From the NCBI GenBank assembly GCA_964443245.1, contig CAYUEG010000006.1, positions 1 to 61,289 on the forward strand: 61,289 nucleotides of DNA, read 5' to 3'. Positions 9,490 to 51,950 of this stretch are shown piece by piece. The translations under genes were made by a program, and so were the position numbers. The notes below the pieces were generated by a model that was given only the letters and a program-made list of their open reading frames with translations, was not told the origin of the DNA and searched no databases. Numbering within the stretch: position 1 is the first letter of the stretch; the number at the start of each line of letters is the position of its first letter. The DNA is from an uncultured Burkholderiales bacterium (GTDB taxonomy: Bacteria > Pseudomonadota > Gammaproteobacteria > Burkholderiales > JAEUOS01).

Positions 9490-9499
9490 CGTCTTCTCC

Positions 9500-9976: not shown

Positions 9977-10018
9977 GGTGTCTCCTTGGTCCATCTTTGT
10001 TGAGTGGTAAAGCGGCCG

Positions 10019-23078: not shown

Positions 23079-23081
23079 GCG

Positions 23082-23870: not shown

Positions 23871-23894
23871 TCCCGCAGTCCTTTGGGAGGATCT

Positions 23895-24341
23895 ATGGCC
23901 GCAAAACAGCATGGATACTGGCTCGCAGCCTTCATCGGCCTGACAGCCTTGTGCACCAACGCTTTCGGGCAATTGCCCCAGGTGAAAACCCAGGGCGTCG
24001 TGAGTTACGTTTCCGGTGGGATTGGTGACGACGAAGAGGCCGCCATCCGCGGTGCCGCCAAGGAGTATGGCGTGCTACTGGAATTCACCGAGGTCGAGCG
24101 CGGCACGTCCCACGGCCGCTGGACTGCGGATGTCGGCATCAGCATCAGGGCCGGCAACGAAGTCGTCCTGAACGCCCGCTCCGACGGGCCGCTGATGCTG
24201 GTCAAGCTGAAGCCCGGCAGTTATGTGGCCGAGGCGGACCGCCAGGGCGCAAAGCTCACCAAGCGGCTGGAGGTCAAGGCCAACGCCGTGGCGCGCGAGC
24301 GCTTCTTCTGGATCGTCGAAGGGCCGCTTACGCCACGCTAG
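23895..24341 (+). CDS. Exported hypothetical protein (carboxypeptidase-regulatory/transthyretin-like fold suspected)
   Basis: RBS GGAGGA and signal peptide. YVSGGIGDDEE...GPLMLVKLKPGSY pattern is common in exported betaproteobacterial proteins. Confidence 0.7.
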   Translation: MAAKQHGYWLAAFIGLTALCTNAFGQLPQVKTQGVVSYVSGGIGDDEEAAIRGAAKEYGVLLEFTEVERGTSHGRWTADVGISIRAGNEVVLNARSDGPLMLVKLKPGSYVAEADRQGAKLTKRLEVKANAVARERFFWIVEGPLTPR

Positions 24342-25359
24342 CGGCTTCGCGCGCCACTTCGGCCGCCAGCAACTTGCGAAACTGCACCAGGGCCGCATCC
24401 ATCCACAGCGGCTGCATCGCGCTATCCGGATTCAGGTTCTGGTGCTGCGCGGTGATCATGTCGCGGTCTTCATTGAAAGCCGTCAACAGACTGTTGAAGA
24501 TGCCGTCGGTGATCGCGGAGGCGCCGGCACCGGCCTGATGCGCCTGCTGAAAAAAGTAGTGGGTCGTGGTTTCGGTTTCCGGGGTGAGGGTCTGGCAGCT
24601 GTGCAACTGCACGGCGTTGGCAAGATTGTCGGGTGCATCGGCGACGGGTCGGCCGCCTGATTTCATCAACAGGGTGCCGGGCAGGAGAAAATCGTAGATG
24701 AACCAGCGATCCACGTGGGTGGCGAGCGGGCGGATCTTGCTGTAGTAAGGTGGTGGCGGCACGTTGGGCACGTGGCGGCTGACCCGCAGGCCGCGCTGGC
24801 CACAGGTGTCGATGGGCTCGATCGTCGGGCGCGCCTGCGCGATCGCGGTTGAGCCGCCCAGTGTCTTTTCATGCACGTAAGAGAGATGCGAAAAATCGAG
24901 CAGGTTGTCGCAAATGAGCAGATACGGCGTGTCGTAGTGCATGTAGCCAGGCTTGTAGTGCCACGCCGGATCATCGTTCGAGAAGTTGTCGGGCAACAGG
25001 GCCGTGTCGGCGCGCGCCGCATCTCCCATCCACACAAACACCCACTTGTTCCTTGACACCACGGGGTAGGTCCTGACGCGCAAGCCCGCCGGCGCCTTCT
25101 CCAGCCCCGGGACTTCGACGCACCGACCTGTGGCGTCGAATTTGAGCCCGTGGTAACCGCAGCGAATGCAGTCGCCCTCACGTTTGCCTTTCGAGAGCGG
25201 CGCCTGACGGTGGCAACAGCGGTCTTCCAGCACCGTCCATTCGCGGGCTGCGGTACGGTAGACGAGGAGTGGTTCTCCCAGCACCTTGCGGGCAAGGACG
25301 CCTCCTTCAGGGATCTCATGATCCCAGGCGATGACATACCAGCAATTGCGCAACCACAT
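24328..25359 (-). CDS. Rieske non-heme iron oxygenase alpha subunit, VanA/TsaM-like
   Basis: Rieske ligands DRCCHR...CGYHG, mononuclear Fe motif DNLLDFSHLSYVH, C-terminal FNEDR. RBS GGAGA before MWLRNCWY. Confidence 0.92.
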   Translation of the reverse strand: MWLRNCWYVIAWDHEIPEGGVLARKVLGEPLLVYRTAAREWTVLEDRCCHRQAPLSKGKREGDCIRCGYHGLKFDATGRCVEVPGLEKAPAGLRVRTYPVVSRNKWVFVWMGDAARADTALLPDNFSNDDPAWHYKPGYMHYDTPYLLICDNLLDFSHLSYVHEKTLGGSTAIAQARPTIEPIDTCGQRGLRVSRHVPNVPPPPYYSKIRPLATHVDRWFIYDFLLPGTLLMKSGGRPVADAPDNLANAVQLHSCQTLTPETETTTHYFFQQAHQAGAGASAITDGIFNSLLTAFNEDRDMITAQHQNLNPDSAMQPLWMDAALVQFRKLLAAEVAREAASVA

Positions 25360-25501
25360 GAGGGTTTCTCCAGGCCGGGGGTATGGCAGGGGGCGGTGGC
25401 GGGTCGGGACACGCCGCCGCCGGCGAAATGGTACACGCCGGGCGCGCGGTTTGGCTGCAGGCGATGTACCGGCCAGGCGCATGCGGCAAGGTTACAGGCG
25501 C

Positions 25502-25586: not shown

Positions 25587-26552
25587 ATGCGTGCCCCCCC
25601 GCTTGACTTGAGGCTGCTGGAAGTGTTCGAGGCAGTATTCGTGGAGAAAAGCCTGACCAACGCCGCCGTCAAGCTTTCCATGAGCCAACCGGCGGTCAGC
25701 CAGGGTCTGGCGCGCCTGCGCGCCCATTTTGGCGATCCGTTGTTTGTGCGCCTGGTCGGCGGCATGGAGCCGACGCCGCGTGCCAAAGAGTTGTTCGGTT
25801 CGGTCAGCAGCATTCTTAAGGAAGCGCGCGAATCGCTGGTGGCCAAGCCTGCATTCGAAGCGGCCGACAGTACGCGTGAATTCGTCATTGCCACCACCGA
25901 TCTGGGGGCGGCGGCACTGATCCCCGGCCTGATCGATGCCGTGCGCAAAAGTGCACCGCACGTGCGGATCGCCAGTGTGAGTGCAGACGGGCGCGACCTT
26001 GCCGAGGCGATGGCCGCCGGCGATGTGGACCTGGCGATCGGCAATTTCCCTGTTTTGCAAACCGGCTTTTACCAGCAGGGCCTGTACCAGGAAACCTATG
26101 TGCTGCTCGCCAACCCGGCACGCGCGCGTGCCGAGGAGGAACTCACTCTGGAGGAGTTCCGTGCTTCGCGGCATGTCCTGGTGACGGCGGGCACCTCCGG
26201 GCATTTCCACGGCGAGATCGAGCGACGCCTGCGGGCGCTGATTCCACCCGACCATGTGGTGGCAACGCTGTCCAATTTCATTGTGGCGCCGCTGGTGGCG
26301 CGCGGTAGTGATCTTCTGGTGACCGTTCCCAGCAGGGTGGCGCGTATCTATGCCACGCTGTTCGGGCTGGAAGAACTGGCACCGCCGCTCGAACTCCCCG
26401 CCTATCCGATCACCCAGTACTGGCATGCGCGTTATCACCATGATCCGGGGTTGATGTGGATGCGGCGTCTGGTGCACGAACTGTACTCGGCAGGAGGCGA
26501 GGCACATGCCGTGTTTTCAGGGGGTGATGCCAGTGTGGAGTACAGCGAATGA
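25587..26552 (+). CDS. LysR-family regulator (NahR/DntR/NodD-like subgroup)
   Basis: LDLRLLEVFEAV...SLTNAAVKLSMSQPAVSQGLARLR.HFGDPLFVR..GGMEPTPRA, and YWHARYHHDPG..WMR. Confidence 0.93.
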   Translation: MRAPPLDLRLLEVFEAVFVEKSLTNAAVKLSMSQPAVSQGLARLRAHFGDPLFVRLVGGMEPTPRAKELFGSVSSILKEARESLVAKPAFEAADSTREFVIATTDLGAAALIPGLIDAVRKSAPHVRIASVSADGRDLAEAMAAGDVDLAIGNFPVLQTGFYQQGLYQETYVLLANPARARAEEELTLEEFRASRHVLVTAGTSGHFHGEIERRLRALIPPDHVVATLSNFIVAPLVARGSDLLVTVPSRVARIYATLFGLEELAPPLELPAYPITQYWHARYHHDPGLMWMRRLVHELYSAGGEAHAVFSGGDASVEYSE

Positions 26553-27427
26553 GCGCGCTCCAGTACTTGCGGCCGACCCGGCTGGACGAAGCGCTCGCCG
26601 CGCTGGCGGCGCAACCCTGGGCGGTGCTGGCCGGCGGCACGGACTTTTATCCGGCACGTGTGGGAAAACCGGTCGATATGGACATTCTCGATATCACCCG
26701 GGTGGCGAACCTGCGCGGGATCCGCGAGGAAGGCCACTGCTTTCGTATCGGAGCTGCCGTCACCTGGAGCGAACTGATCGCCACCTCGCTGCCGCCCCAG
26801 TTTGATGGATTGAAGGCCGCCGCCCGTGAAGTGGGCGGTGCGCAGATCCAGAATGCCGGCACCGTGGTGGGTAACCTGTGCAACGCCTCCCCGGCAGCGG
26901 ATGGCGTTCCTGCGTTGCTGGCGTTGGGGGCGCAGGTCGAGTTGGCCTCGACGAAAGCGAAGCGCCGCTTGCCGCTGGCCGATTTTGTGTGCGGCAACCG
27001 CAAGACTGCCCGCCGGCCACAGGAACTGGTGACGGCGGTGCTGGTGCCCAAATGGCGTGCCAATGCCCAAGGGGTGTTTCTGAAGCTGGGCCACCGGCGC
27101 TATCTGGTGATCTCGATTGCGATGGTATCGGCGGTCGTAGCGTTGGACGACGCCGGGCGGGTGGCCATGTGCGGCATCGCCGTGGGGGCCTGCTCTGCCG
27201 TCGCGCAACGGCTGCCCGGGCTGGAAGCCAGGCTCACCGGTCGGCCGGCACGGGAGGCCGCCGGGCTGGTCACAGCGGAGGATCTGCGTCACTTGACCCC
27301 GATCGATGATGTGCGCGGCAGTGCGGCCTACCGCCTCGATGCCGCACTGACGCTGGTGCGTGAGGCCGTCGCGCTGGCGGTGGATGCCAAGGCCGCAGCG
27401 GCGTTGGCCGGTGGAGGAATGCGATGA
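26549..27427 (+). CDS. Xanthine dehydrogenase-family FAD-binding subunit
   Basis: LAGGTDFYP, AQIQNAGTVVGNLCNASPAADG, PIDDVRGSAAYR. Confidence 0.92.
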   Translation: MSALQYLRPTRLDEALAALAAQPWAVLAGGTDFYPARVGKPVDMDILDITRVANLRGIREEGHCFRIGAAVTWSELIATSLPPQFDGLKAAAREVGGAQIQNAGTVVGNLCNASPAADGVPALLALGAQVELASTKAKRRLPLADFVCGNRKTARRPQELVTAVLVPKWRANAQGVFLKLGHRRYLVISIAMVSAVVALDDAGRVAMCGIAVGACSAVAQRLPGLEARLTGRPAREAAGLVTAEDLRHLTPIDDVRGSAAYRLDAALTLVREAVALAVDAKAAAALAGGGMR

Positions 27428-30291
27428 ACCAGCCACGCGAGCGCGGCCTGTTTGATGAACTGGAAAAAGAGCCAGGATCGTTGGTGGGAGCCGATCTGGC
27501 GGGCATGGCCCTGACCGTCAATGGCAAACCCCAGATCCTGCACTGTGCCCCCTCCAAGCGCCTGGTGTATGCCTTGCGCGAAGACCTGGGCCTCACCGGA
27601 ACCAAGGTCGGTTGCGATGCCGGGGATTGCGGCGCCTGCACGGTCCTCCTTGAGGGCAAGCAGGTGTGTGCGTGCATCACGCCGGCGGCGCAGGCGGAAG
27701 GCTGCAATGTAACCACCGTGGAAGGCCTGGCGGAAGAAGGCAAGCTCAACACCCTGCAACAGGCATTTCTCAAGCATGGCGCGGCCCAGTGCGGCATTTG
27801 CACGCCTGGCATGCTGATGGCGGCCAGCGACCTGTTGTCGCGCAACGCCGCACCGAGCGAGGCCCAGGTGCAGGACGCATTGGGTGGCGTGTTGTGTCGC
27901 TGCACCGGTTATCGCAAGATCATTGATGCCGTGCTGGCCGTGGCCAGCGGGGATATCGCGCTGGATGGTGAGGATTATCAGGCGCCGGTCGGCAAGGCGG
28001 TCGGCAGCCGCCTGGCGCGTCTCGATGGCCCGGCCAAGCTCACCGGTGCCGAGAAATATGGGGCGGATGTCGTGCCGGAAGGCGCCCTGACGTTACGCAT
28101 CATCCGCTCGCCGCATGCACGTGCCACTTTCACCTTGGGCGATCTCGAAGCGTTTCGTGCCGCCTACCCGCAGGTGGAAGGCATCATCACCGCAGCGGAT
28201 GTGCCGGAGAATTCTTTTGCCGTGTTCCCCACACCGAAAGACCAACCCGTCCTCGCAGATGGCCATGTGCGCTTTCGCGGTGAGGCGGTGCTGGGCCTGA
28301 TCGGCGCGGAAGAGGCGATTCGCGCGATTCCCGAAAGTGCGGTGCCGATTACATGGCATGTCGGCCAGGCTTTGGAAACCTCCGAAGCGGCGCTGGCTGC
28401 CGCATTGGTCGCTCCTGACGATGCTCTGCATGCGTTTGCTGCGGACAATGTGCTGTGCCGCGGCCGGGTGGTGAAGGGCGACATCGCCACAGGCTTGCAA
28501 CAGGCTGCCTTCAAGGCCGAGGGCAGGTTTGAAACCACGCACGTCGAGCATGCCTACATCGAGCCGGAGGCTGGCTATGCCGAGGTGTTCGAGCAGGATG
28601 GCAAGCAACGCATCCGCATCTTTGCCTGCACGCAAACGCCGTACATGGATAAGGAAGAGGTGGCGCGCGTACTGAAGCTGCCGCTGGATGCCGTACACGT
28701 TGTGCCCTCGGCCATCGGCGGCGGCTTTGGCGGCAAGCTGGATGTTTCGATTCAACCGCTGCTCGCAGTGGCGGCCTGGAAGATGAAGCGGCCAGTGCGG
28801 ATTGTCTACACCCGGCCCGAATCGATGGTCTCCACCACCAAGCGGCACCCGGCCGACATGCAGGTCACCCTGGGCTGTGACGCATCGGGCCAGTTGACGG
28901 CGGTTGATTTTGCCGGCGATTTCAATACCGGTGCCTACGCCTCGTGGGGTTCCACCGTGGCCAACCGCGTGCCGGTACACGCCAGCGGGCCTTACAAGGT
29001 GCCCCATGTGCGTGCGTTGACGCGCGCCGTCTACACTCACAATGCGATTGCCGGGGCGTTCCGTGGCTTCGGCGTGCCGCAAGCCTGCATCGCCACCGAA
29101 GCGCTGATGGACGATCTGGCCGCCCAGTGCGGCATGGATCGCTTTGAGTTTCGCCTGAAGAACGCGATTCGCGCCGGCGACCAAACCGCAACTGGTCAGG
29201 AGCTCAAAGCCAGCGTCGGTATGGCAGCCTGCCTTGAAGCCTTGCGCCCCGCCTGGCTCAATACGCAGAGCGAGGTGGCGCGCAAGAATGGCTCCAGGAG
29301 CGCTTCTCCGGGCCATGGCGCCGTCTCTTCCAATCTGCGCTATGGCGCGGGCATCGCATGCATGTGGTACGGCATTGGCAATACGGTGATTGCCAATCCC
29401 TCCACCATCACCATCGGCTTGCGTCAGAACGGGCGCTTCATGCTCTACAACGGCGCGCAGGAGATCGGGCAGGGTACCTACACCATCATGCCGCAGATTG
29501 CGGCGGATGCCCTGGGCGTATCGGTGACGCTGATTGACCAGATTCATGGCGATACGGATCTCACCGAGGACGCCGGCAAGTCGTCGGCATCGCGGCAGAC
29601 CTTCGTGTCCGGCAATGCCACCAAATTCGCTTCCGAGGATCTGAAGCAGCAGTTGTGCGCGTTGCTCGGTGTCGCGGAGGATGCCACGCTGACGCTCGAA
29701 GGCGCAGTATTGGTAGGGCGCGATGCAGAGGGTGAGAAGCGCCTGGATCTGGCTCAGGCGAAAGCCGATGCGCGTGGTGATGTTGCCCTGGGTCGCGGCA
29801 CCTTCAGCCCGCCGACGGTCCCGCTGGATGGCGATGGCCAGGGTGTGCCCTACGCCACCTACGGCTTTGCCGCCCAAATCGCGGAGGTGGAAGTCGATAT
29901 GGACCTCGGCACCGTCAAGGTGCTGCACATCCATGCCGCCCATGACGTCGGCCGCGCCGTCAATCCGACCCAGGTCGAAGGCCAGATCCACGGCGGCGTT
30001 GCGCAAGGCTTGGGGCTGGCACTGATGGAGGAATACATCAGCGGCCGTACCGACAACCTGCACGACTACCTGATCCCGACGATTGGCGACATTCCACCGA
30101 TCACCACCTACATCATCGAGGATGCGGAGCCGATTGCACCCTATGGTGCCAAGGGGGTGGGGGAGCCGGCGTTGATTGCGACGGCACCGGCCATCTTTGG
30201 CGCCATCCGGCAGGCGACGGGGGTGCGGGTGGATGTCGCACCGTGTACGCCGGATCGACTACGCCAGCGCATCAAGGCACAGCATTCATGA
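27424..30291 (+). CDS. Molybdenum hydroxylase with the 2x[2Fe-2S] domain fused to the molybdopterin domain (nicotinate dehydrogenase-like family suspected)
   Basis: N-terminal GCDAGDCGAC, QCGICTPG, CRCTGY. Mo domain GGGFGGK, AFRGFGVPQ, GAKGVGEP. Confidence 0.9.
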   Translation: MNQPRERGLFDELEKEPGSLVGADLAGMALTVNGKPQILHCAPSKRLVYALREDLGLTGTKVGCDAGDCGACTVLLEGKQVCACITPAAQAEGCNVTTVEGLAEEGKLNTLQQAFLKHGAAQCGICTPGMLMAASDLLSRNAAPSEAQVQDALGGVLCRCTGYRKIIDAVLAVASGDIALDGEDYQAPVGKAVGSRLARLDGPAKLTGAEKYGADVVPEGALTLRIIRSPHARATFTLGDLEAFRAAYPQVEGIITAADVPENSFAVFPTPKDQPVLADGHVRFRGEAVLGLIGAEEAIRAIPESAVPITWHVGQALETSEAALAAALVAPDDALHAFAADNVLCRGRVVKGDIATGLQQAAFKAEGRFETTHVEHAYIEPEAGYAEVFEQDGKQRIRIFACTQTPYMDKEEVARVLKLPLDAVHVVPSAIGGGFGGKLDVSIQPLLAVAAWKMKRPVRIVYTRPESMVSTTKRHPADMQVTLGCDASGQLTAVDFAGDFNTGAYASWGSTVANRVPVHASGPYKVPHVRALTRAVYTHNAIAGAFRGFGVPQACIATEALMDDLAAQCGMDRFEFRLKNAIRAGDQTATGQELKASVGMAACLEALRPAWLNTQSEVARKNGSRSASPGHGAVSSNLRYGAGIACMWYGIGNTVIANPSTITIGLRQNGRFMLYNGAQEIGQGTYTIMPQIAADALGVSVTLIDQIHGDTDLTEDAGKSSASRQTFVSGNATKFASEDLKQQLCALLGVAEDATLTLEGAVLVGRDAEGEKRLDLAQAKADARGDVALGRGTFSPPTVPLDGDGQGVPYATYGFAAQIAEVEVDMDLGTVKVLHIHAAHDVGRAVNPTQVEGQIHGGVAQGLGLALMEEYISGRTDNLHDYLIPTIGDIPPITTYIIEDAEPIAPYGAKGVGEPALIATAPAIFGAIRQATGVRVDVAPCTPDRLRQRIKAQHS

Positions 30292-35840: not shown

Positions 35841-35918
35841 TCGGGGGTCCGCCTGGGGCAGCGGGTCCCTGGGGATGAGGCAGAATGGCGGGGGTGCGCT
35901 CCCTCATTGTTGCTTCCC

Positions 35919-38900
35919 ATGTCTGACGTCATCGCATCCTCCCCCACGCCTGATGGTGGTACGCCGGTTGCCAAGCCTCGAAGGGCGGGCTTGCGCTGGC
36001 AACGCTGGTCAGCGGTACTGCTGGTCTTGTTCCTGGCAATCGCACTGGGCGGCTTCGTTGCATTGCCGTCGCTGATCCAGTCAAAGTTGCCCCAATGGAT
36101 TGAGTCGCAACTCAAGCGCAAGGCCTCCATCGGCGCGGTCAAGATTAACCCGTTCTCGCTGCGTGTTGAAGCACGCGATTTCAAGCTCACGGAAGCGGGT
36201 GGCCAGCCAATCGCCGGATTTGCGGGCCTGGTGGTGGATCTGGAGTGGTCATCGCTGACTCGACGTGCATGGCACCTGGCGGAGATTCGGCTGACGGAGC
36301 CGCAAGTGCTGCTCGATATTGCGCCGGATGGGCGCATCAATCTTGCCCAACTGCTGGCCGATCTGACCCGCGATGCCGAACCAAAGCAGTCTGCCGGAAT
36401 GCCCCGGCTCGTGATCGATACCGTGGTGGTGGAGCGCGGGCGCGCGGATTTCACGGATCGTCGCGCCGGGTACAGCAATGCGTTATCGCCAGTTGACTTG
36501 CGTCTGGAGCACTTCAGCACCCTGCCCAAGGACAAGGGCCCCTATACGTTCAGCGCCAGCACGGCACGCGGCGGGGTGCTGCGCTGGAAGGGGGAGATTT
36601 CGATGAACCCGCTTTCGGCCAGCGGTGTCATCAGCGGATCCGCCATTTCCTTGCCGGAACTGGCCACCTATCTGAAGCCTTATGCGGCGGTGCAGGTCGC
36701 AAGCGGCAAACTCGGGTTCGACCTGCCGTATCGCGTTGCCTATCGCGAAGGGGCGCTGGATGCCGGTGTGGATGCGGCCTCGCTCAAGCTGGAACAGGTA
36801 TCGCTCAAGGGCCCGGGTGCGACGGACCCGTTTCTGGCCGTGACAGGGCTGACGGTGGACAAGCTCAGTGCCGATTACGCCAGGCGTGAGGTAGCCGTGG
36901 GTGAGGTGCTGCTGGATGGTGGCAAAGTGCAGGCCAGGCGCGATGAGCAGGGTGGCGTGGATGTATTGGGCTGGATTGTCCCGGCGCCGGTCTCGACGCC
37001 TTCGACACGCGAAGCGCCCGCTGCGTCGAGCACCGCTGCAGCAGCGGCTGCGCAGGCTGCACCCCCTGCCGCCCCGGCATGGAAAGCCAGGATCGGGAGG
37101 GTCGGATTGGACAACATGGCTCTGGCATTCGAGGATCGGACGGCGCCAGTGCCGCTGGGGGTGGCACTTGAGCGTCTCAAGGCAAGCGTCAGCATCGAAC
37201 TGGAAGCCAGCGCGGTCCCGAAGTTGTCGGTAACCAGTGCCGACGTCGCCTTGCGCAACCTGATAGTGGGAGCGAGGACAGCACCGCCGGTGCGGATTGG
37301 CGAGATCGCATTGAGTGGTGGCGAAGTCAATCTCGCCGCGCGTACCGCCAAATTGGCAAACGTGGCGATCAGCGATGGCCAGGTGAGGGTGGTGCGCAGC
37401 AGCACAGGAGGGCTGAACTTGCTCGACCTGATTCCTCGCTCTGCGGGAGCACAGCACGCCGGTGCCTCCCCATCCAACCCGGCGGTGCCGCCACGCAAGG
37501 GCCCTTCAGGCAAACCGGCTGCGATCCAGGCCGATGCGTGGAAAGCGTTGGTGGGAGCGGTTCTTCTCAGCAAGTTCACGGTCGATCTGGAGGATCAGGC
37601 AACGGCCGTGGCGTTGCGCGCTCAGGACATGTCCATCAAGCTGAATGACCTGTCGAGCGATCCGGCGCAGCCGGTCAAGTTTGATGCCGGCCTGACCTTG
37701 CGCGAAGGAGGCAGGTTGGCGGCACAGGGCCGGGCCGTTCCCGCCAAGGGCACTGTGGATGCCAATGTGCGGATTGACCAGTTGGCCCTCAAGCCCGCTC
37801 AGCCCGTGCTGGCGCGCTACGTCAAGCTCAAGATTGCCGACGGCACGGTGTCTGCGCAAGGCAAGCTGGTCGCCTCTTCCGATGGTGGCGCAGCGGGCTT
37901 GCTGCGCTATGTTGGCAGTGCCGACGTTTCCAATCTCAAGCTCGACGAAGAAAGTGGTGACGTTTTTGCCGCCTGGAAGCGGGTCGCGGCCGACCAGCTG
38001 ACATTGGCGCTGCAGCCCAACCTGCTGGATGTCCCGGAGCTGCGCCTGGAGGAAATCAATGCCAAGTTGCTGATCGACGCTGATCGCAGTCTGAACGCCA
38101 CCCGCCTGCTGGTGAACCGTGAGGCGGCGCCTGTCACGGGCAGCGCCGTCGTTGCCGCGCCGCCGCCAGCGCCCGCGGTGGCTGTGCCATCGTCGGCGCC
38201 CTCCGCGAGTCCGACGGCCGGTTCGGCGGCCGAACTGCATCAGGCCTTCCCGGTCACGGTACGCCGGGTGCGGGTGCTGAACAGCAAACTCGAGTTCGCC
38301 GACTTGAGTCTGCGACCGCAGTTTGGCGCCAGGATCCACGAGCTCAACGGGGTCATCAACGGGCTCTCGACCAACCCGGCCACCCGCAGCCAGCTGGAGC
38401 TGGATGGAAGGGTCGACGAGTTTGGTCTGGCGCGCATTCGCGGCGAGTTGAACCCGTTTGCACCGCGCATCAATACTGATGTGTCGCTGGTGTTCAAGAA
38501 CGTCGATCTGGTGTCGGCATCGCCCTATTCGATGAAGTTTGCCGGTTACAAGATCGCCTCGGGCAAGATATCGCTCGACCTCAATTACAAGGTTCGCGCC
38601 AGCCAGCTGGAAGGGCAAAACAGCGTGATCCTGGATCAACTCACGCTGGGCGAACGCGTCGACAGCCCTGATGCACTCAAGCTCCCGCTGGAGCTGGCAC
38701 TGGCGATCCTGAAGGACAGTGACGGCAAGATCGACCTGGACCTGCCGGTCTCAGGCAGTCTGGACGACCCGCAGTTCAGCTACGGCGCCATCGTCTGGAA
38801 GGCCATTACCAACGTGCTGACCAAGATCGTGACAGCGCCGTTCCGGGCCTTGGGTGCGCTCTTTGGCATCAGTGGAGACAAGCTGGAGGCGATCGATTTC

Positions 38901-39509
38901 GATGCCGGCAGTGCGGTGTTGCTGCCACCGGAACGGGAGAAACTCAAGCAGGTGGCGACGGTGCTCGCCAAACGTGCCCAGCTGAAACTGGCGGTACCGG
39001 GGCAATTCAATGAGGCTGCAGATGGCGCGGCGCTCAAGGTCCGGGCAGTACGCCTGGAAGTTGCGCGGCGCGCCGGCATTCGAGTGGCCGATGGCGAAGA
39101 GCCTGGCCCTGCCGACCTGACGGATCGGGCTGTGCGCACGGCGTTGCGCGCCATGCTGACCGAACGGCATGGCGCAGGCGAATGGGATCAGCGCAAGGCG
39201 CAGGCCGAGAAAGACGCAGCCGGGGCGCCGGTTTCGATGCTGGAGCGGGCCCAGCGCATCACCCAGGGCGAGCCCCAGGTGGCAGACCTGGGGCCACTCT
39301 ATCGCGGCATCGTCGAGCGGCTTAACCAGTCTCAGCCCCTGGCCCCTGAGGCGCTGCAGCAGCTGGCGAAGCGGCGGTCGGATGCGATTGTCGAGGCGCT
39401 CAAGGGGGCGGGGATCGAGTCGGCGCGTCTGGTGCAGCCGTCGAGCGAACGCGTTGAAGGAGCTGCGGGCAAATTGGTGTCGGTCAAGCTGGGCCTCTCG
39501 TCGCGCTGA
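35919..39509 (+). CDS. DUF748 domain protein (AsmA-like clan), N-terminal membrane anchor
   Basis: TM WSAVLLVLFLAIALGGFVALP, INPFSL, repeated beta-strand blocks, SPYSMKFAGYKIASGKISLDLNY, LAILKDSDGKIDLDLPVSGSLDDPQFS, OmpA-like tail LAKRRSDAIV. Confidence 0.85.
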   Translation: MSDVIASSPTPDGGTPVAKPRRAGLRWQRWSAVLLVLFLAIALGGFVALPSLIQSKLPQWIESQLKRKASIGAVKINPFSLRVEARDFKLTEAGGQPIAGFAGLVVDLEWSSLTRRAWHLAEIRLTEPQVLLDIAPDGRINLAQLLADLTRDAEPKQSAGMPRLVIDTVVVERGRADFTDRRAGYSNALSPVDLRLEHFSTLPKDKGPYTFSASTARGGVLRWKGEISMNPLSASGVISGSAISLPELATYLKPYAAVQVASGKLGFDLPYRVAYREGALDAGVDAASLKLEQVSLKGPGATDPFLAVTGLTVDKLSADYARREVAVGEVLLDGGKVQARRDEQGGVDVLGWIVPAPVSTPSTREAPAASSTAAAAAAQAAPPAAPAWKARIGRVGLDNMALAFEDRTAPVPLGVALERLKASVSIELEASAVPKLSVTSADVALRNLIVGARTAPPVRIGEIALSGGEVNLAARTAKLANVAISDGQVRVVRSSTGGLNLLDLIPRSAGAQHAGASPSNPAVPPRKGPSGKPAAIQADAWKALVGAVLLSKFTVDLEDQATAVALRAQDMSIKLNDLSSDPAQPVKFDAGLTLREGGRLAAQGRAVPAKGTVDANVRIDQLALKPAQPVLARYVKLKIADGTVSAQGKLVASSDGGAAGLLRYVGSADVSNLKLDEESGDVFAAWKRVAADQLTLALQPNLLDVPELRLEEINAKLLIDADRSLNATRLLVNREAAPVTGSAVVAAPPPAPAVAVPSSAPSASPTAGSAAELHQAFPVTVRRVRVLNSKLEFADLSLRPQFGARIHELNGVINGLSTNPATRSQLELDGRVDEFGLARIRGELNPFAPRINTDVSLVFKNVDLVSASPYSMKFAGYKIASGKISLDLNYKVRASQLEGQNSVILDQLTLGERVDSPDALKLPLELALAILKDSDGKIDLDLPVSGSLDDPQFSYGAIVWKAITNVLTKIVTAPFRALGALFGISGDKLEAIDFDAGSAVLLPPEREKLKQVATVLAKRAQLKLAVPGQFNEAADGAALKVRAVRLEVARRAGIRVADGEEPGPADLTDRAVRTALRAMLTERHGAGEWDQRKAQAEKDAAGAPVSMLERAQRITQGEPQVADLGPLYRGIVERLNQSQPLAPEALQQLAKRRSDAIVEALKGAGIESARLVQPSSERVEGAAGKLVSVKLGLSSR

Positions 39510-39568
39510 CGGTATCATCTGCGGCCAGGGAATCTCTTTCGCGCAACCACCTTTTCGGAACCTTCACT

Positions 39569-39895
39569 ATGCGATCCAACCATGACATGGGAGGGCTTAC
39601 CGCTGGCCGCATCGTGCCGCGTGAGCATACCTACGAGCCTTGGGAAAAGCGTGTTGATGCACTGATGATGCTGCTCTCGCATCGCGACCGCCAGTTGCTG
39701 AAGGTGGATGAGTTGCGGCGCAACATCGAAACCCTGGGCGCGGATGCCTATGACCGCATGAGCTATTACGAGCGCTGGATGCACGCGATCTGCCAGACAC
39801 TGATTCAGCGCGGTGTGATCAATCTGGACGAGCTAGGCCGGCGCATGGAAGAGGTGAAGGCGCGCGGCGCACTGCCTGACGAGGGCAAGTGCTGA
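39569..39895 (+). CDS. Nitrile hydratase beta N-terminal half / thiocyanate hydrolase beta (ScnB)-like subunit
   Basis: HDMGG, EPWEKR, DELRRNIE, YDRMSYYERW, RGVINLDEL. Confidence 0.85.
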   Translation: MRSNHDMGGLTAGRIVPREHTYEPWEKRVDALMMLLSHRDRQLLKVDELRRNIETLGADAYDRMSYYERWMHAICQTLIQRGVINLDELGRRMEEVKARGALPDEGKC

Positions 39896-40236
39896 TGGAA
39901 GCGATGGGCATGTACGGGGTGGAGCCTGCGGTTGCACCGCATGTACCGGCGGCATTTGCCGTCGGCGATCGGGTGCGGGTACGGGTTGCCTCGCCGCCAG
40001 GGCATGTGCGCACGCCTGCCTATTGCCGGGGGAAGGCCGGTACCATCGAACGCCTGTGCGGCGCGTTTGCCAACCCGGAAGAGCTGGCCTACAACCGCTC
40101 CGGATTGCCGGCCCAACCGCTCTACCGTGTCCGATTTGCCGCGCGCGACTTGTTCGCCGGCTATGCCGGGTTGCCGGCAGATGTGGTGGAGATCGAAATC
40201 TTCCAGCACTGGCTTGAACCGGAGGAAGCACCATGA
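39895..40236 (+). CDS. Nitrile hydratase beta C-terminal SH3-like half / thiocyanate hydrolase alpha (ScnA)-like subunit
   Basis: FAVGDRVRV, GHVRTPAYCRGKAGTIER..G.F.NPE..A, LYRVRF, IEIFQHWLEP. The ATG overlaps the upstream TGA. Confidence 0.85.
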   Translation: MEAMGMYGVEPAVAPHVPAAFAVGDRVRVRVASPPGHVRTPAYCRGKAGTIERLCGAFANPEELAYNRSGLPAQPLYRVRFAARDLFAGYAGLPADVVEIEIFQHWLEPEEAP

Positions 40237-40844
40237 ACGCGCCGCATGACCATACCCATTTTGGGGATGACGAGGATTCGGTTTCCTATTACCGCACCAT
40301 GGAGATCGCGGTACGTGAGCTGCTGATCGAGAAGAATGTCTTTACGGCAAGCGATTTGCGCGCCCAGATCGAAGCCATGGATGCGCGCTCGCCGGCACGC
40401 GGCGCGAAGGTGGTGGCGCGTGCGTGGCGGGATGGTGATTTCAAGGCGCGCTTGCTGGCAAACGGCACGCAGGCCTGCGAAGAACTGGGCCTCGAACTGG
40501 GACCGTTGAAGCTGGTGGTGGTGGAGAACACGCCTGACGTCCATAACGTCATCGTGTGTACCTTGTGTTCCTGTTATCCGCGCATGCTGCTCGGTTTGCC
40601 TCCGGATTGGTACAAGAGCCGCGAGTACCGCTCGCGCGTGGTCCATGAACCACGGCGCGTGCTCGAAGAGTTTGGCACCCGCCTGCCTGAGCAAGTGGCT
40701 CTGCGGGTACACGATTCGACCGCTGACATGCGCTATCTGGTGTTGCCGATGCAGCCACCCGGGAGCGCCGGTCTGGATGAGACGGCGCTCGCCGCGCTGG
40801 TCACGCGCGATGCCATGATTGGCACAGCCGTGATTGACCGGTAG
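40233..40844 (+). CDS. Cobalt-type nitrile hydratase alpha / thiocyanate hydrolase gamma (ScnC)-like subunit
   Basis: Metal-binding claw VCTLCSCYPR (40554-40583), WYKSREYRSRVV.EPR.VL.EFG, VHDSTADMRYLVLP, VTRDAMIG. Confidence 0.9.
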   Translation: MNAPHDHTHFGDDEDSVSYYRTMEIAVRELLIEKNVFTASDLRAQIEAMDARSPARGAKVVARAWRDGDFKARLLANGTQACEELGLELGPLKLVVVENTPDVHNVIVCTLCSCYPRMLLGLPPDWYKSREYRSRVVHEPRRVLEEFGTRLPEQVALRVHDSTADMRYLVLPMQPPGSAGLDETALAALVTRDAMIGTAVIDR

Positions 40845-40845
40845 A

Positions 40846-42462
40846 TCATTCGGGGTCCGGGAATCCGTCCAGTTCGGGAGGCGCACGGTTGAGCGCAGGC
40901 CGCTCGCCCGGTGGTGGCCGGTAAAAAGCGACGCGCGAAACGGTCGAATGTTTGGCCTTGTACATCGCACTGTCGGCGCGTGCCAGCAGGTTCACCGAGT
41001 CGGTTGCGTCCACCGGATAGATGGCAACCCCCACACTGGCACCGACGCGCGCATTGGGGTCGATGCCGGGGAACGGCGCATCGAGGGATTTGACCAGCTT
41101 GTTGGCGATATCGGCGAGGACGCCATCGTTACCCGCCTGTTCCAGCAGAACGATGAATTCATCGCCGCCCAACCGGGCGATGGTATCGCTGGCGCGCAAC
41201 AGCGCCTTAAAGCGTTTGGCCGCTTCGGCCAGAACAACGTCACCGGCGCTGTGGCCGAGCGCGTCGTTGACCAGCTTGAAGCCGTCCAGGTCGATGAACA
41301 GGAGGGCCATGCGCCAGCCGTTGCGCTCCGAACGCGCGATACCCTTGTCGAGTTCGGCATGGAATGAAAGACGGTTGCGCAGGCCCGTCAAGGCATCATG
41401 CGTGGCGGCATACGTCAATCGCGCTTCGGCTTCGCGCCGCAGCCAGAACAGGGATACGTGATGATTCAGCGCCTCGCTGACCGATTCGACCAGATCGTCG
41501 CTTTGCTGGATCGACGGGCCGAAGAACTCGAGCAGGCAGACCGGCTCTCCCTGAACCATGACCGGGACGACGAAACTGGCGGCAAGACCGGCCTCGACCA
41601 GTGCGGCCTGGCGCACACTGGCAGGGTCGGTGCGGGCATCGGTCACCCACACGGCCACCTGGTGGCGCCAGGCCCGTGCGAGCGGATCGTAGCCGTCTGC
41701 AGAGATCCTCGCCTGCTTGGAGGCCGTTACCAGAGGCTGGGCTCGTGCCATGGCCCAGATTTCGCCGCATACCAGGTGGTTATCGCGCGGATCCCGCATC
41801 CACCTTGCGCCGTACAGCCACTCGAGTGGACGGCACACGGCTTCGAGCAACTCGGGCATCGCGTCTGAGAGCCGATGGTGTGCCGACAGGGCACGGGTGA
41901 CGCCGTCGGAGATCTGCATGCGCAGTTGCGCCAGCCGAAACCGCGTGATGTCCCGGCTGGCGGCGCGATAGCCGGCGAAGCCGCCGCGCGCATCAAACAC
42001 CGGCGTACCGCTGATGCTGCCAAACCGCAGTCGCCCATGCGCATCAATGCGACCCACGATGAAATCATGAAAGGGCTTATGCCCTTCCATCAGCTTGCGC
42101 AGGCGTTCCCACTCCGCTGCACTGACGCCGACCGCAGGAATTTCCCAGGGAGTCTTGCCTTCAAAGGACCCAAGATCAAAGCCGTCGAAGGCCTGCTGGC
42201 GCCCGTAAAACTTGACGTACCGATGGCTGGCATCCGATTCCCAGAATGCGTCGTTTGACGTGATGGTGATGTGGCCCAGCGACGAGACCCAGGACTCGGG
42301 CAGATCAATCCAGTCATTGCGCATGATGGTGTCTGCGCCCAACGGTACCCGCACAGTCGCTTCGAGCCGGCGCAAGCGCAGGGTGGCGCGTACCAGGAGC
42401 GCTGCGATCACCGCCACGCCGACCAACAGCAGCAGCGCGGCGATGTTCAGCGGCGCGCTCAT
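40846..42462 (-). CDS. Diguanylate cyclase, TM-PAS-GAF-GGDEF
   Basis: PAS FWESDASHR, GAF-like region, HDALTGLRNR, intact GGDEF with I-site RASD five residues upstream. Confidence 0.9.
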   Translation of the reverse strand: MSAPLNIAALLLLVGVAVIAALLVRATLRLRRLEATVRVPLGADTIMRNDWIDLPESWVSSLGHITITSNDAFWESDASHRYVKFYGRQQAFDGFDLGSFEGKTPWEIPAVGVSAAEWERLRKLMEGHKPFHDFIVGRIDAHGRLRFGSISGTPVFDARGGFAGYRAASRDITRFRLAQLRMQISDGVTRALSAHHRLSDAMPELLEAVCRPLEWLYGARWMRDPRDNHLVCGEIWAMARAQPLVTASKQARISADGYDPLARAWRHQVAVWVTDARTDPASVRQAALVEAGLAASFVVPVMVQGEPVCLLEFFGPSIQQSDDLVESVSEALNHHVSLFWLRREAEARLTYAATHDALTGLRNRLSFHAELDKGIARSERNGWRMALLFIDLDGFKLVNDALGHSAGDVVLAEAAKRFKALLRASDTIARLGGDEFIVLLEQAGNDGVLADIANKLVKSLDAPFPGIDPNARVGASVGVAIYPVDATDSVNLLARADSAMYKAKHSTVSRVAFYRPPPGERPALNRAPPELDGFPDPE

Positions 42463-49279: not shown

Positions 49280-49526
49280 GTCGTCGTGGAGGATAAAGGG
49301 GTCGAAATGTGGGCATCACGCGGCAGGGCGCGATGCTGCAGGGCAATATGTTAATCCATGGACGTGGTATTGATCGCTGCATGCACCAGAAAAGTGTCTG
49401 CCAGCATCGAAAAGGGGCAGGTTAGTCCCTGTGTTCGCCGTCGCAATCGCGCGGTGGTTCCCTAGAATCGGAGATGCAAATTGCTGCCTGGTCAGGCGGC
49501 ATCGGGTCTGGATGAGCGGGGTAATC

Positions 49527-51950
49527 ATGGCGGCTGTGCCGGACGACCTGATGGCAGAAGCCATCGGCCGGTTCATTGTGGAGCGTGAGTTGGGGCGTGG
49601 AGCCCAGGGTACCGTCTACCTCGCCACCGACCCGCGCCTGCAGCGCAAGGTTGCCGTGAAAACCCTGCGTACCGGGCGCCGCACCAGCGTGCCGCCCGCT
49701 GAAACCATGCGCCTCCTGATGGATGAGGCGCGCATCGTCGGCCAGTTGCAGCACCCCAATATCGTGACGCTATACGATGCCGGGGAGCAGGGCGGCCTGC
49801 CCTACCTGGTGTTCGAGTATGTCGAAGGCAGCCCGCTTTCCGATTTGATCAGCGATGAGGGACGGATCGCGCCGGCTGAAGCGGCCGCGATGGCCCTGCA
49901 GGTGCTGCGCGGCATTGCCTATGCCCACGAACGCAATGTGGTCCATCGCGACATCAAGCCGGGCAACATCATGATCACGGGTGAGCGGGTGGCCCGCATC
50001 ATGGATTTTGGTATCGCTCTGCGCACCAACGAGGGCACCAGCAGCGGCGCCGGGCTCAGCGGTACCCCACGCTATATGGCTCCGGAGTACCTGAAGGGCG
50101 GCACCTATACCCCGGCATGCGAGGTGTTTGCCGTCGGCATGGTGCTCTATGAGATGCTGACCGGGACGCCGGCGGTGCGTGGCAGCGACCCGCATGCCAT
50201 CATGTATGCGATGGTGCACCAGCCATTTGAGCGACCCTCGGCGCGCAACGTTTCTGTCGACGAGAAAATCGAGGCCATTGTGATGCGCGCGCTGGCCAAG
50301 GACCCCGCGCAGCGTTATGCCGGGCCGGATGCGATGATCGAGGCACTTGCCGAATACTGTCGCCCGGCCGGTGGCGCACGCCAGGGAGCCGGGGATGACA
50401 GTGACAACGCGGCACTTGAATACGTACTGCGGCGAATGCGCCACAAGACCGATTTTCCGGCGCTCTCGTCCACCATTGCCACCGTCAATCGCGTGGCGGC
50501 TTCGGATACGGAGTCCACCAGCGGCCTGGCCGACAGCATCCTGAAGGATGTGGCACTGACCAACAAGATCCTGCGCATGGTCAATGCGGTGGCGTTTTCA
50601 CAGTTTGGCGGTTCCATCAGCACGATCTCGCGGGCAGTGTCGATTCTTGGTGTGCAGCGAGTGCGCAGTGCCGCTCTCTCGCTGATGCTGTTCGAGCATC
50701 TGCAGAACAAGAGCCAGGCGGCGGACCTGAAGGACCTGGTCTCGGCGAGCTATTTCAGCGGCACCCTGGCGCGTGATCTGGCGTCACACGCCGGCCTGCG
50801 CCTTCCGGAAGAGGTGTTCATCTGTTCGATGTTCCACCGGCTGGGAAAACTGCTGGCAACGTTCTACCTGCACGAGGAGGCTTCGGACATTGCGCGCCTG
50901 GCGCGAACCGAGCGCATCGATGAAGACGCGGCTGCTGCTGATGTGCTCGGCCTGACCTACACCGCGCTGGGCGCTGGTGTGGCAGAGAAATGGAATCTGC
51001 CCGAGCGGATCGTCAAATCCATGGTGCCCTTTACGGAAGCCAGTGTCGGTGTGCTGCACACCGACGTGCAAAAACTGCGTGCGGTATCGGATCTGTCGAA
51101 TCGTCTGACTGATGTGGTGCGTCTGCCGGAGGGCAAGGAGCGCAGGCGTGCCTTGCAGCAACTGTCTACCAAGTATGAGAAATCCCTCGACTTGAGCATG
51201 GAGGCACTGTCCGGGGCGCTGGAGCGCTCGGCGCAAGCCTTCGCCAGCGAGGCGCAGACCTTGGGCCTCTCGGTAGGAAATGGCGAGTTCATGCAGAAGC
51301 TGCTGGGCGTGGCTGGGGCGCGCAGCACACCGGCCCCGGCTGAAGTGCCGTCCACAACGGAAGTGGGTCTGGCAGAAACGGTGATGAACGTCTCACCGGA
51401 GGCGGGTACCACGTTCGACCGCCCGGCCGAAGCGAGGCAATCGATGCTCAGTGCCGGCATTTCGGACATTACCCAGGCACTCTCGGGTGAATATGTGCTC
51501 AATGATGTCCTGCGCATCATTCTTGAAACCATGTATCGGGCGATCGGGTTCAAACGGGTGATGCTGTTTACACTGGATGGAGCTACCCGACGCCTGAAGG
51601 TGCGCTTCGGCTTCGGGGATGATGCGGAGCGGATGGTCAAGGGCGGCCTGTCGATTCCTCTGGATGCGACGCGTGATGTGTTTGCCCTGGCGCTGGCGAA
51701 GGGCGTCGACATCTGCATCGAGGATCGCGACTCCGGGAAGATGAAATCCCATGTCCCGGACTGGTATCGCAGTGCTGTCACCGCGCGGGGGTTCATCCTG
51801 TTCCCGGTCCTGATCAACCAGAGACCCCTGGCCATGATCTACGCCGATGCCGACGATGGCGCATCCATGCAGTTCGAGAAGAGCGAGTTGGGCATGCTCA
51901 AGACGCTGCGCGATCAGGCCATATTGGCCATTCGCCGCAAGAGCGCCTGA
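49527..51950 (+). CDS. Hanks-type Ser/Thr kinase fused to HDOD and a C-terminal GAF-like domain
   Basis: LGRGAQGTVY, VAVK, HRDIKPGN, DFG, GTPRYMAPE. HDOD DFPAL...ILKDVALTNKILRMVN...ISTISRAVSILG. Start uncertain (49512/49527/49551). Confidence 0.88.
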   Translation: MAAVPDDLMAEAIGRFIVERELGRGAQGTVYLATDPRLQRKVAVKTLRTGRRTSVPPAETMRLLMDEARIVGQLQHPNIVTLYDAGEQGGLPYLVFEYVEGSPLSDLISDEGRIAPAEAAAMALQVLRGIAYAHERNVVHRDIKPGNIMITGERVARIMDFGIALRTNEGTSSGAGLSGTPRYMAPEYLKGGTYTPACEVFAVGMVLYEMLTGTPAVRGSDPHAIMYAMVHQPFERPSARNVSVDEKIEAIVMRALAKDPAQRYAGPDAMIEALAEYCRPAGGARQGAGDDSDNAALEYVLRRMRHKTDFPALSSTIATVNRVAASDTESTSGLADSILKDVALTNKILRMVNAVAFSQFGGSISTISRAVSILGVQRVRSAALSLMLFEHLQNKSQAADLKDLVSASYFSGTLARDLASHAGLRLPEEVFICSMFHRLGKLLATFYLHEEASDIARLARTERIDEDAAAADVLGLTYTALGAGVAEKWNLPERIVKSMVPFTEASVGVLHTDVQKLRAVSDLSNRLTDVVRLPEGKERRRALQQLSTKYEKSLDLSMEALSGALERSAQAFASEAQTLGLSVGNGEFMQKLLGVAGARSTPAPAEVPSTTEVGLAETVMNVSPEAGTTFDRPAEARQSMLSAGISDITQALSGEYVLNDVLRIILETMYRAIGFKRVMLFTLDGATRRLKVRFGFGDDAERMVKGGLSIPLDATRDVFALALAKGVDICIEDRDSGKMKSHVPDWYRSAVTARGFILFPVLINQRPLAMIYADADDGASMQFEKSELGMLKTLRDQAILAIRRKSA

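Follow-up and report, generated by a model that had tools for sequence, protein, structure and literature searches.

The locus described here raises the question of how to read an enzyme that carries the active-site arginine of thiocyanate hydrolase (SCNase) on one side of its pocket and the hydrophobic residue of a nitrile hydratase (NHase) on the other. A sequence-only reading of the window, by which we mean the whole stretch of 61,289 nucleotides that was analysed, had taken this combination for a special hybrid that fits neither class and may act on another substrate. We find instead that the locus encodes a quite usual representative of a type of enzyme already known, neither an SCNase nor a new enzyme class. 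On sequence comparison we consider it quite probable that the product is a self-maturing, three-subunit cobalt NHase, made of alpha and a split beta, that belongs to a large and widespread clade.

Gene layout and subunit assignment

The features of the locus are the following.

39569..39895, + strand: beta-N, N-terminal half of the NHase beta subunit; 108 aa, 12.7 kDa; Pfam PF21006 (NHase_beta_N), 4.6e-20
39707..39721, + strand: D47-E-L49-R50-R51 of beta-N, with Leu49 as pocket position, Arg50 as catalytic-site Arg and Arg51 as second clade-conserved Arg; from sequence and alignment
39895..40236, + strand: beta-C, C-terminal SH3-like half of the NHase beta subunit; 113 aa, 12.3 kDa; Pfam PF02211 (NHase_beta_C), 5.2e-24
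40233..40844, + strand: alpha, the catalytic, metal-binding NHase subunit; 203 aa, 22.7 kDa; Pfam PF02979 (NHase_alpha), 1.5e-77
40557..40583, + strand: metal claw C109-T-L-C-S-C114, then Y-P-R117, with YPR at 40575-40583; read from the sequence

The open reading frames for beta-N, beta-C and alpha lie where they had been proposed, with Pfam matches far beyond chance. The three genes overlap and are translationally coupled: at the first junction (TGATG) the ATG of beta-C at 39895 overlaps the TGA of beta-N at 39893-39895, and at the second (ATGA) the ATG of alpha at 40233 overlaps the TGA of beta-C at 40234-40236. GC3 is about 0.71-0.75 in all three genes, similar to that of the neighbouring genes. 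A scan of 39300-41100 for promoters and terminators found none, and an activator or accessory gene, or a paralogue of beta-N, was found nowhere in the 61-kb window; beta-N itself has a weak match (0.0034) to the accessory-protein model TIGR03889. With its two beta genes, the lack of an activator gene and a presumed requirement for cobalt, the operon belongs to the split-beta subclass of NHases.

Residues 108-117 of alpha read VCTLCSCYPR (V108-C109-T-L-C112-S113-C114-Y115-P116-R117), which confirms the earlier call of a cobalt-type claw, VCTLCSC, followed by YPR. Alpha has the NHase alpha domain, the claw C-(T/S)-L-C-S-C and the cobalt-type markers, Thr110 after the first cysteine and Tyr115 after the last, and is thus a Co-type NHase alpha. 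In the PDB it comes nearest to the alphas of Co-NHases (about 1e-53, compared with 1.6e-46 for SCNase gamma). On the NCBIfam model TIGR01323 (nitrile_alph equivalog) it scores 240.2 bits, about 10 below the cut-off of 249.85; the homologues called nthA by PGAP reach 267.5 in Streptomyces, 255.7 in Microvirga and 248.0 in R. leguminosarum, so that the clade straddles this cut-off. The PGAP names given to homologues from cultured strains are nthA, nitrile hydratase or SH3-like domain protein. The AF2 model of alpha fits NHase alpha folds with a TM score of about 0.65-0.67, its pLDDT being below 50 at the claw (residues 112-128).

Weak matches of alpha to the NHLP leader and Frankia_peptide models could suggest a non-catalytic relic or a RiPP-related protein of the NHLP type. 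Such matches, however, reflect the homology of the NHLP leader to NHase alpha, and we rejected this explanation because alpha is full-length, its claw is intact and both beta halves are present. The claw is invariant in all 79 aligned alphas of the clade, no loss of a claw cysteine being seen among these relatives, and in many assemblies the operon recurs at 73-99% identity with its frames intact. We give the relic or NHLP-type explanation hardly any credence.

Beta-N starts with an HDxGG N-terminus. When it is aligned with the beta subunit of the P. thermophila enzyme (PtNHase), Arg50 corresponds to Arg52, Glu54 to Glu56, Tyr66 to Tyr68 and Trp70 to Trp72; of the pocket residues, Val46 corresponds to Leu48, and Leu49 shares its column with PtNHase Phe51 and SCNase beta-Arg90. 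Two further claims are borne out by this alignment, namely that DELRR places a leucine at the beta-Arg90 position and that a hydrophobic residue hence stands where SCNase has this arginine. The beta side of the pocket (Val46, Leu49, Tyr66, Trp70) is hydrophobic, as in ordinary NHases. In beta-C, the His37 of a GHVRTP motif corresponds to beta-His147 of P. putida NHase and to AnhE-His21 of Streptomyces canus, and Arg39 aligns with the GHxR arginine, which makes it the likely second arginine hydrogen-bonding the oxidised cysteine ligands. The best PDB matches of beta-C are C-terminal halves of NHase beta (2.7e-17, versus 2e-07 for SCNase alpha). Both domains of an NHase beta, its two arginines and its tyrosine are therefore present, spread over two polypeptides.

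Among 75 clade members, beta-N Arg50 and Glu54 are found in all 75, Tyr66 in 74, Arg51 in 69, Trp70 in 65 and Leu49 in 54, while His37 and Arg39 of beta-C are each kept in 72 of 75. By alignment, the catalytic and second-shell residues are all retained.

The conserved residues, together with the known chemistry of the family, suggest how the enzyme would work. Co(III) would be bound by Cys109, Cys112 and Cys114 of alpha and by the backbone amides of Ser113 and Cys114, with Cys112 oxidised to sulfinate and Cys114 to sulfenate. Arg50 of beta-N and Arg39 of beta-C would hydrogen-bond these oxygens, assisted by beta-N Tyr66, and a metal-bound nitrile would be attacked and leave as the amide. By analogy with S. 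canus AnhD, beta-N probably serves as metallochaperone and self-subunit-swapping partner (PMC7329996). Arg117 of alpha most likely tunes the polarity of the pocket and the substrate range, and would not convert the enzyme to a thiocyanate hydrolase.

The arginine after CSCYP and the case for thiocyanate hydrolase

The SCNase of T. thioparus (ScnB/ScnA/ScnC, PDB 2DD4) resembles the locus in several respects. The two share the split-beta order, since two beta genes followed by alpha match scnB-scnA-scnC as the sequence-only reading had noted, and they share the cobalt claw and the Arg after CSCYP. Arg117 aligns with SCNase gamma-Arg136 (2dd4_C: C128-T-L-C131-S-C133-Y-P-R136), so the gamma-type arginine is indeed kept, and the Arg-Arg pair that follows the beta pocket position, R91-R92 in SCNase, recurs as R50-R51 in beta-N. 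A divergent thiocyanate hydrolase, converting SCN- to COS and NH3, could account for these likenesses. SCNase differs, however, in its beta-Arg90, at which position the window has Leu, and in a gamma insertion at about 95-116 and a beta N-terminal extension of about 44 residues, the latter two being absent here. Alpha scores 203.1 bits on the SCNase gamma model TIGR03887, below the cut-off of 291.45, whereas the positive controls, T. thioparus gamma and R. marmotae ScnC, reach 400.6 and 359.2 bits; its identity is 42% to SCNase gamma and 51% to PtNHase alpha. All three subunits score nearer to NHases than to SCNase, and a search of the window for sulfur-oxidation genes found none. We therefore rejected this assignment and regard it as very improbable.

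The arginine itself turns out to be widespread. Our survey covered the best 80 genome loci from at least 600 matched species genomes, as well as the closest protein clusters, and CSCYPR is found in 120 of 120 of the latter. The beta subunit is split in 72 of the 80 loci. The 79 alphas from these loci with a residue at position 117 have R in 74 cases, K in 4 and V in 1, and alpha-Arg is most often paired with beta-Leu (47 of 74 loci). In family representatives at 50% identity the residue after CSCYP is R in 67, W in 17, K in 9, S in 9, T in 9 and L in 8, with others making up the rest. From these sequences we conclude that Trp after CSCYP marks the classical NHase clade only, that Arg at this place is not specific to SCNase, and that alpha-Arg with a hydrophobic beta residue is the rule in a very large, widespread clade. 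The pocket is thus no special hybrid outside both classes, as had been supposed, but the majority state of its clade.

A phylogeny of the alpha/gamma subunits had been proposed as a check. In a neighbour-joining tree, which carries no support values, SCNase forms a long branch nested among the Arg-type sequences, which lends the SCNase assignment some support. The reciprocal exchange of the two residues is represented by mutant structures, SCNase gamma R136W (3vyg) and NHase alpha-W116R (3vyh). Beyond these structures, a limited literature search found no support for beta-Arg90 and gamma-Arg136 as determinants of SCNase selectivity.

Characterised relatives

The classical two-subunit Co-type NHase of Pseudonocardia thermophila JCM 3095 (PDB 1IRE) has the same fold, the claw VCTLCSCY, both beta arginines, the beta-Tyr68 and Trp72 whose equivalents are kept here, and a hydrophobic beta side. 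It differs in having a single fused beta and a separate activator gene, and in having Trp116 in place of Arg117, alpha-Gln89 at the position aligned with Gly90, and Phe53 in place of beta-N Arg51. The toyocamycin NHase ToyJKL of S. rimosus was reportedly described by McCarty and Bandarian in 2008 and by Nelp et al. in 2014. It also has three subunits with beta split in two polypeptides, but its substrate is defined and it sits in a deazapurine antibiotic cluster, unlike the stand-alone operon of the window. ToyJKL is reported to group with that of S. canus (PMC13243292, PMC12648386).

A close counterpart in layout is AnhD-AnhE-AnhA of S. canus CGMCC 13662 (Guo et al. 2019, 2020, PMC7329996), which has the same order of beta-N, beta-C and alpha, uses cobalt and lacks an activator gene. 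Its subunits are of similar size (about 10-12, 11-12 and 21-23 kDa), and AnhD-Glu56 and AnhE-His21 have their conserved equivalents here in beta-N Glu54 and beta-C His37. A homologue on a Streptomyces plasmid (L081) is laid out in the same way and has the motif CSCYPR, and the window alpha is 54% identical to its alpha; AnhA's own Arg is deduced only from such congeners. A search for homologues that started from the Streptomyces alpha yielded many species of this genus, including the olivaceoviridis/corchorusii/canarius group, and no entry under the name of S. canus or S. rimosus. The plasmid NHase of M. flocculans CGMCC 1.16731, which hydrates flonicamid (Zhao et al. 2020), is also a split-beta cobalt enzyme according to the account that cites it (PMC11573777). 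A plasmid enzyme of the congeneric M. terrae (L087) has CSCYPR and 61.5% alpha identity to the window; the Microvirga type differs in its order of beta-C, alpha and beta-N, with HoxN adjacent, and in having Lys at the beta-N pocket position. In the Streptomyces-type beta-N (L081), too, Lys stands in place of the window's Leu. Judging from these two congeners, the characterised three-subunit enzymes probably carry the same Arg, while the exact Arg/Leu pocket is without a characterised representative because both congeners have Lys on the beta side.

AnhDEA, ToyJKL and the plasmid enzyme of M. flocculans are thus known examples of split-beta Co-NHases that lack an activator and hydrate neutral nitriles (PMC7329996, PMC11573777, PMC13243292). 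Activity of such enzymes has been shown by experiment on acetamiprid, thiacloprid, benzonitrile, flonicamid and toyocamycin (PMC7329996, PMC11573777, PMC12648386). With neutral nitriles known as substrates and all subunits nearer to NHases, the step from a hybrid pocket to a new substrate is not supported.

Genomic context and possible substrate

The order two-component system, DUF748, NHase trio, GGDEF, SDR, DUF924, methyltransferase, dapA and bamC is kept down to 73% alpha identity, and the best reading is that the operon is a stable, vertically inherited resident of a Burkholderiales or Burkholderiales-like chromosome. Relatives with the same architecture adjoin cobalt transporters, CbtA/CbtB in R. 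leguminosarum (L082) and HoxN in Streptomyces (L081), Microvirga (L087), L048 and L053. Because of these neighbours and of the claw we infer that the enzyme depends on cobalt; in the 80 surveyed loci a HoxN transporter is present in 2.

Conserved neighbours could offer a clue to the substrate, but in an all-against-all clustering of the open reading frames of the 80 loci nothing besides the trio itself recurred in more than 15 loci. The neighbours that recur (aconitase, DUF1223, FliG and a lipid A acyltransferase) reflect lineage synteny within Rhodobacteraceae. No amidase is linked to the window operon, and an amidase signature is present in 2 of the 80 loci and absent from 78, which is uncommon among catabolic NHases and counts against the reading favoured here.

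These observations bear on the new-substrate idea when it is extended to the whole clade, so that the Arg-type split-beta enzymes would have a physiological substrate class of their own, apart from classical aliphatic and aromatic nitriles, with Arg117, and perhaps beta-N Arg51, as the recognition element. The near invariance of Arg117 (74 of 79) and the frequency of Arg51 (69 of 75), where PtNHase has Trp116 and Phe53, argue for it. The operon, moreover, is passed on vertically amid housekeeping genes and without an amidase, which hints less at nitrile catabolism than at a dedicated task in metabolism or detoxification. Known three-subunit enzymes also act on N-cyano insecticides and toyocamycin (PMC7329996, PMC12648386). 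On the other hand, the N-cyano insecticides in question are hydrated by classical Trp-type NHases as well (PMC8278588) and hence cannot tell the two groups apart; on its beta side the pocket is hydrophobic like that of ordinary NHases, and no conserved neighbour in the 80 loci points to a pathway. We consider a separate substrate class unlikely, and equally tentative are the candidate substrates that could be named for it: beta-cyanoalanine, cyanoacetate or another polar or anionic nitrile, an N-cyano (cyanamide-type) compound, or a 7-cyano-7-deazapurine. Should the clade after all have a dedicated substrate, which we doubt, the window would hold a typical representative of a distinct functional subfamily found in hundreds of species.

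The reading that we favor, and suggest as the annotation of the locus, is a cobalt nitrile hydratase of three subunits, beta-N, beta-C and alpha. The consequences for the window locus itself are small, and the natural substrate of the clade is a modest question for the field. The textbook rule that Trp after CSCYP means NHase and Arg means SCNase does not hold, and we point out that SCNase calls made in metagenomes, for instance from thiocyanate bioreactors, on the basis of a split-beta layout or of this Arg would therefore be false positives. As the clade is abundant, activator-free and compact, it offers a sensible place to look for nitrile-hydrating biocatalysts that are easy to express.

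Results

We find that, judged by its sequence, the nitrile hydratase (NHase) operon is a typical representative of the Arg-type split-beta cobalt NHases, a very large clade that is mostly uncharacterised, and that its architecture already has characterised representatives, which are active on neutral nitriles. The sequence-only reading had seen a hybrid between NHase and thiocyanate hydrolase (SCNase); its family, metal type, layout and alignments hold, while the idea of a special hybrid, and with it of a new class of substrate, is not supported. ORF reading, Pfam and direct reading recovered all the genes, junctions and motifs that it had listed. The beta-C start overlaps the beta-N stop (TGATG) and the alpha start the beta-C stop (ATGA), and GC at third codon positions of the trio agrees with that of adjacent genes.

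Features of the NHase operon and the gene upstream
35907-39509, +, DUF748/AsmA-like protein, 1200 aa, 915 bits; 59 nt upstream of the trio
39569-39895, +, NHase beta-N, 108 aa; Pfam NHase_beta_N 4.6e-20
39707-39721, +, beta-N D47-E-L49-R50-R51, read from sequence
39895 (ATG) to 40236, +, NHase beta-C, 113 aa; Pfam NHase_beta_C 5.2e-24
40233 (ATG) to 40844, +, NHase alpha, 203 aa; Pfam NHase_alpha 1.5e-77
40575-40583, +, YPR of the alpha claw V108-C-T-L-C-S-C114-Y-P-R117, read from sequence

The cobalt-type claw and both beta arginines (beta-N Arg50, beta-C Arg39) are intact, and the claw, beta-N Arg50/Glu54/Tyr66/Trp70 and beta-C His37/Arg39 are conserved in the clade. An AF2 model gives alpha the NHase alpha fold, the model being unreliable at residues 112-128, which span Arg117.

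Nitrile hydratase or thiocyanate hydrolase

Reference sequences were checked against the PDB copy. The gamma subunit of Thiobacillus thioparus SCNase (2dd4_C) reads C128-T-L-C131-S132-C133-Y-P-R136, so gamma-Arg136 is the residue after CSCYP, and R117 keeps it as had been claimed. The beta subunit of Pseudonocardia thermophila NHase (PtNHase; 1ire_B / 3vyh_B) has Leu48, Phe51, Arg52, Tyr68 and Trp72. Alignment A2 and the HMMER alignment both place beta-N Leu49 in one column with PtNHase Phe51 and SCNase beta-Arg90, again as proposed; in A2, Arg50 further corresponds to PtNHase Arg52/SCNase Arg91, Tyr66 to Tyr68 and Trp70 to Trp72. That the alpha position has been examined for a part in determining specificity is shown by the entries 3vyg (SCNase gamma-R136W) and 3vyh (PtNHase alpha-W116R); for beta-Arg90 as a determinant of SCNase selectivity we found no text in the accessible literature.

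By sequence comparison, each of the three subunits is nearer to NHases than to SCNase. Alpha matches Co-NHase alphas at ~1e-53 and SCNase gamma at 1.6e-46 (51% identity to PtNHase alpha, 42% to SCNase gamma), beta-N matches P. putida NHase beta at 1.3e-07 and SCNase beta at 9e-05, and beta-C matches NHase beta at 2.7e-17 and SCNase alpha at 2e-07. On the NCBIfam SCNase-gamma equivalog TIGR03887, alpha scores 203 bits, below the cut-off of 291, the T. thioparus protein 400.6 and the plasmid ScnC of Roseomonas marmotae 359.2. The NHase-alpha equivalog gives the window alpha 240.2 bits, slightly below the cut-off of 249.85, where homologues named nthA by PGAP reach 248-268. SCNase has an insertion in gamma and an N-terminal extension of beta, both of which the window proteins lack.

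Two further positions differ from classical NHases. Gly90 (40500-40502) of the window alpha takes the place of PtNHase alpha-Gln89, the equivalent of the alpha-Gln90 examined in Fe-type NHase (PDB 2zcf); Gly stands there in 45 of 81 clade alphas, hence the Gln is not conserved in the Arg-type clade. Beta-N Arg51 (39719-39721), directly after the catalytic-site Arg, is kept in 69/75 clade members and shared with SCNase (Arg92), where Phe53 is found in PtNHase and His in P. putida NHase.

The R. marmotae plasmid p1318-8 (L083, 4086-5735) carries a genuine ScnC (TIGR03887, 359 bits), preceded by one 283-aa protein in which the SCNase beta and alpha parts are fused, with the EERRR motif; SCNase thus does not always consist of three subunits. 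Next come CbtB/CbtA and a TauE/SafE exporter, and IS elements flank the locus.

Pocket residues among relatives

Of the closest protein clusters made at 90% identity, 120/120 have CTLCSCYPR (68-100% identity). With each species represented by a single genome, a scan gave at least 600 matching stretches; among the best 80 of these loci, 72 have separate beta-N and beta-C ORFs, the majority of the others being cut by contig ends, and the residue after CSCYP is Arg in 74, Lys in 4 and Val in 1. The beta-N pocket position is Leu in 54/75 clade members, followed by Met, Asn, Lys, His, Ala and Val, with no Arg among the residues listed for these 75. The combination of alpha-Arg and beta-Leu, which had been taken for a special hybrid pocket, is the majority state (47/74 loci) and, by these sequences, is not unusual.

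An exhaustive search among representatives at 50% identity found 3096 relatives (E-value <=0.001); for the best 150 of them, CSCYP is followed by R in 67, W in 17, K, S and T in 9 each, L in 8, V in 5, A in 4, and others. In a neighbour-joining tree, indicative only as it has no support values, the Trp-type enzymes (P. thermophila, B. smithii) form one clade, the window falls within a wide radiation of Arg-type enzymes together with those of Streptomyces and Rhizobium plasmids, and the two SCNases, on a long branch of their own, nest among sequences of the Arg type. It looks from these sequences as if Arg is the common state and Trp a speciality of classical NHases, the SCNase-specific features apparently being beta-Arg90 and the insertions.

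Many relatives appear to be fused, either as beta-C+alpha of ~320 aa (310-340 aa; P0128-P0147) or as whole beta+alpha of ~450-520 aa (450-530 aa; P0137, P0153, P0157 and others), and the long forms have L, T, S, A or V after CSCYP, neither R nor W. Two loci (L013 5158-6648, L030 5269-6585) have beta-N and alpha matches in one stop-to-stop ORF. The clade reaches cyanobacteria, as a Planktothrix agardhii plasmid (hit H5, NZ_LR882951.1, 125765-126349) encodes an alpha that shares 61% identity with that of the window.

Characterised split-beta enzymes and proposed mechanism

Streptomyces canus CGMCC 13662 has a three-subunit cobalt NHase encoded in the order AnhD (beta N-terminal part), AnhE (beta C-terminal part), AnhA, without an activator; its substrates include acetamiprid, thiacloprid and benzonitrile, and AnhD additionally serves as metallochaperone and in self-subunit swapping (PMC7329996). 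The S. canus enzyme groups with ToyJKL, the toyocamycin NHase of S. rimosus (PMC13243292, PMC12648386), and in the flonicamid-hydrating plasmid NHase of Microvirga flocculans the alpha gene lies between the two beta genes (PMC11573777). The layouts of the S. canus and M. flocculans enzymes are those seen in cultured strains: beta-N, beta-C, nthA, then aquaporin and the HoxN cobalt transporter on a Streptomyces sp. NBC_01176 plasmid (L081); beta-C, alpha, beta-N adjoining CbtA/CbtB on an R. leguminosarum plasmid (L082); and beta-C, alpha, beta-N with HoxN on a Microvirga terrae plasmid (L087). All three alphas have CSCYPR, and by analogy it is reasonable to expect the same Arg in AnhA, ToyJ and PnhF; at the beta-N pocket position the three have Lys (EEKRR) where the window has Leu. 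The permuted order beta-C, alpha, beta-N occurs in a subclade (L002, L040, L048, L053, L082, L087) that matches the published description for M. flocculans, often adjoins cobalt transporters (CbtA/CbtB or HoxN) and has Lys at the beta-N pocket position in L082, L087 and two out of three permuted loci counted.

From the established chemistry of the NHase family, we infer that Co(III) would have three Cys and two amide nitrogens as ligands, with Cys112 as sulfinate and Cys114 as sulfenate, and that the nitrile would be activated at the metal and released as amide. Maturation would probably proceed without an activator via beta-N, as shown for AnhD; beta-N has a faint match to the accessory-protein model TIGR03889. 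That the Arg-type split-beta clade has a physiological substrate of its own seems improbable to us, and would be of moderate interest if true.

Genomic context

The window is an unremarkable piece of proteobacterial chromosome of high GC (63%), and its genes include trpEGDC, plsY, xerC-like, RND efflux, uvrB, dapA-bamC and acyl-CoA carboxylase genes; the nearest named genome match is a Burkholderiales MAG (79%). Alphas with 93% and 73% identity stand among neighbours in the same order, one of them within a 6.9 Mb contig, which argues that the operon is vertically inherited and not a recent island. A PAS-GAF-GGDEF gene lies tail-to-tail with the trio, one base apart, and a promoter and terminator scan of 39300-41100 detected neither a sigma-70-like promoter nor an intrinsic terminator at the trio. 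From its position, the DUF748/AsmA-like gene could be co-transcribed with the NHase operon. Within the 61 kb window we found neither an amidase nor a cobalt transporter, an activator or a paralogue of beta-N, and across 80 loci no functionally telling conserved neighbour. The pairing of the DUF748/AsmA-like gene with the trio is kept in the loci L084, L085 and L086.

Long antisense ORFs at 22017-23972 (-), over trpD/trpC, and 40161-40970 (-), over NHase alpha, lack a Pfam match or show atypical codon-position GC; they are spurious, as is typical of high-GC DNA.

Other features of the window
7282-9994, -, xanthine-dehydrogenase/CO-dehydrogenase-family molybdoenzyme, set 1 (MoCoBD, 2Fe-2S, FAD subunits)
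26549-30291, +, molybdoenzyme of the same family, set 2 (MoCoBD, 2Fe-2S, FAD subunits)
49431-51950, +, Ser/Thr kinase + HDOD protein, 839 aa

The second molybdoenzyme set follows a LysR regulator and is close to a Rieske/VanA-type oxygenase (24328-25482, -), and the joining of a eukaryotic-type Ser/Thr protein kinase domain and HDOD in one protein is an uncommon architecture.
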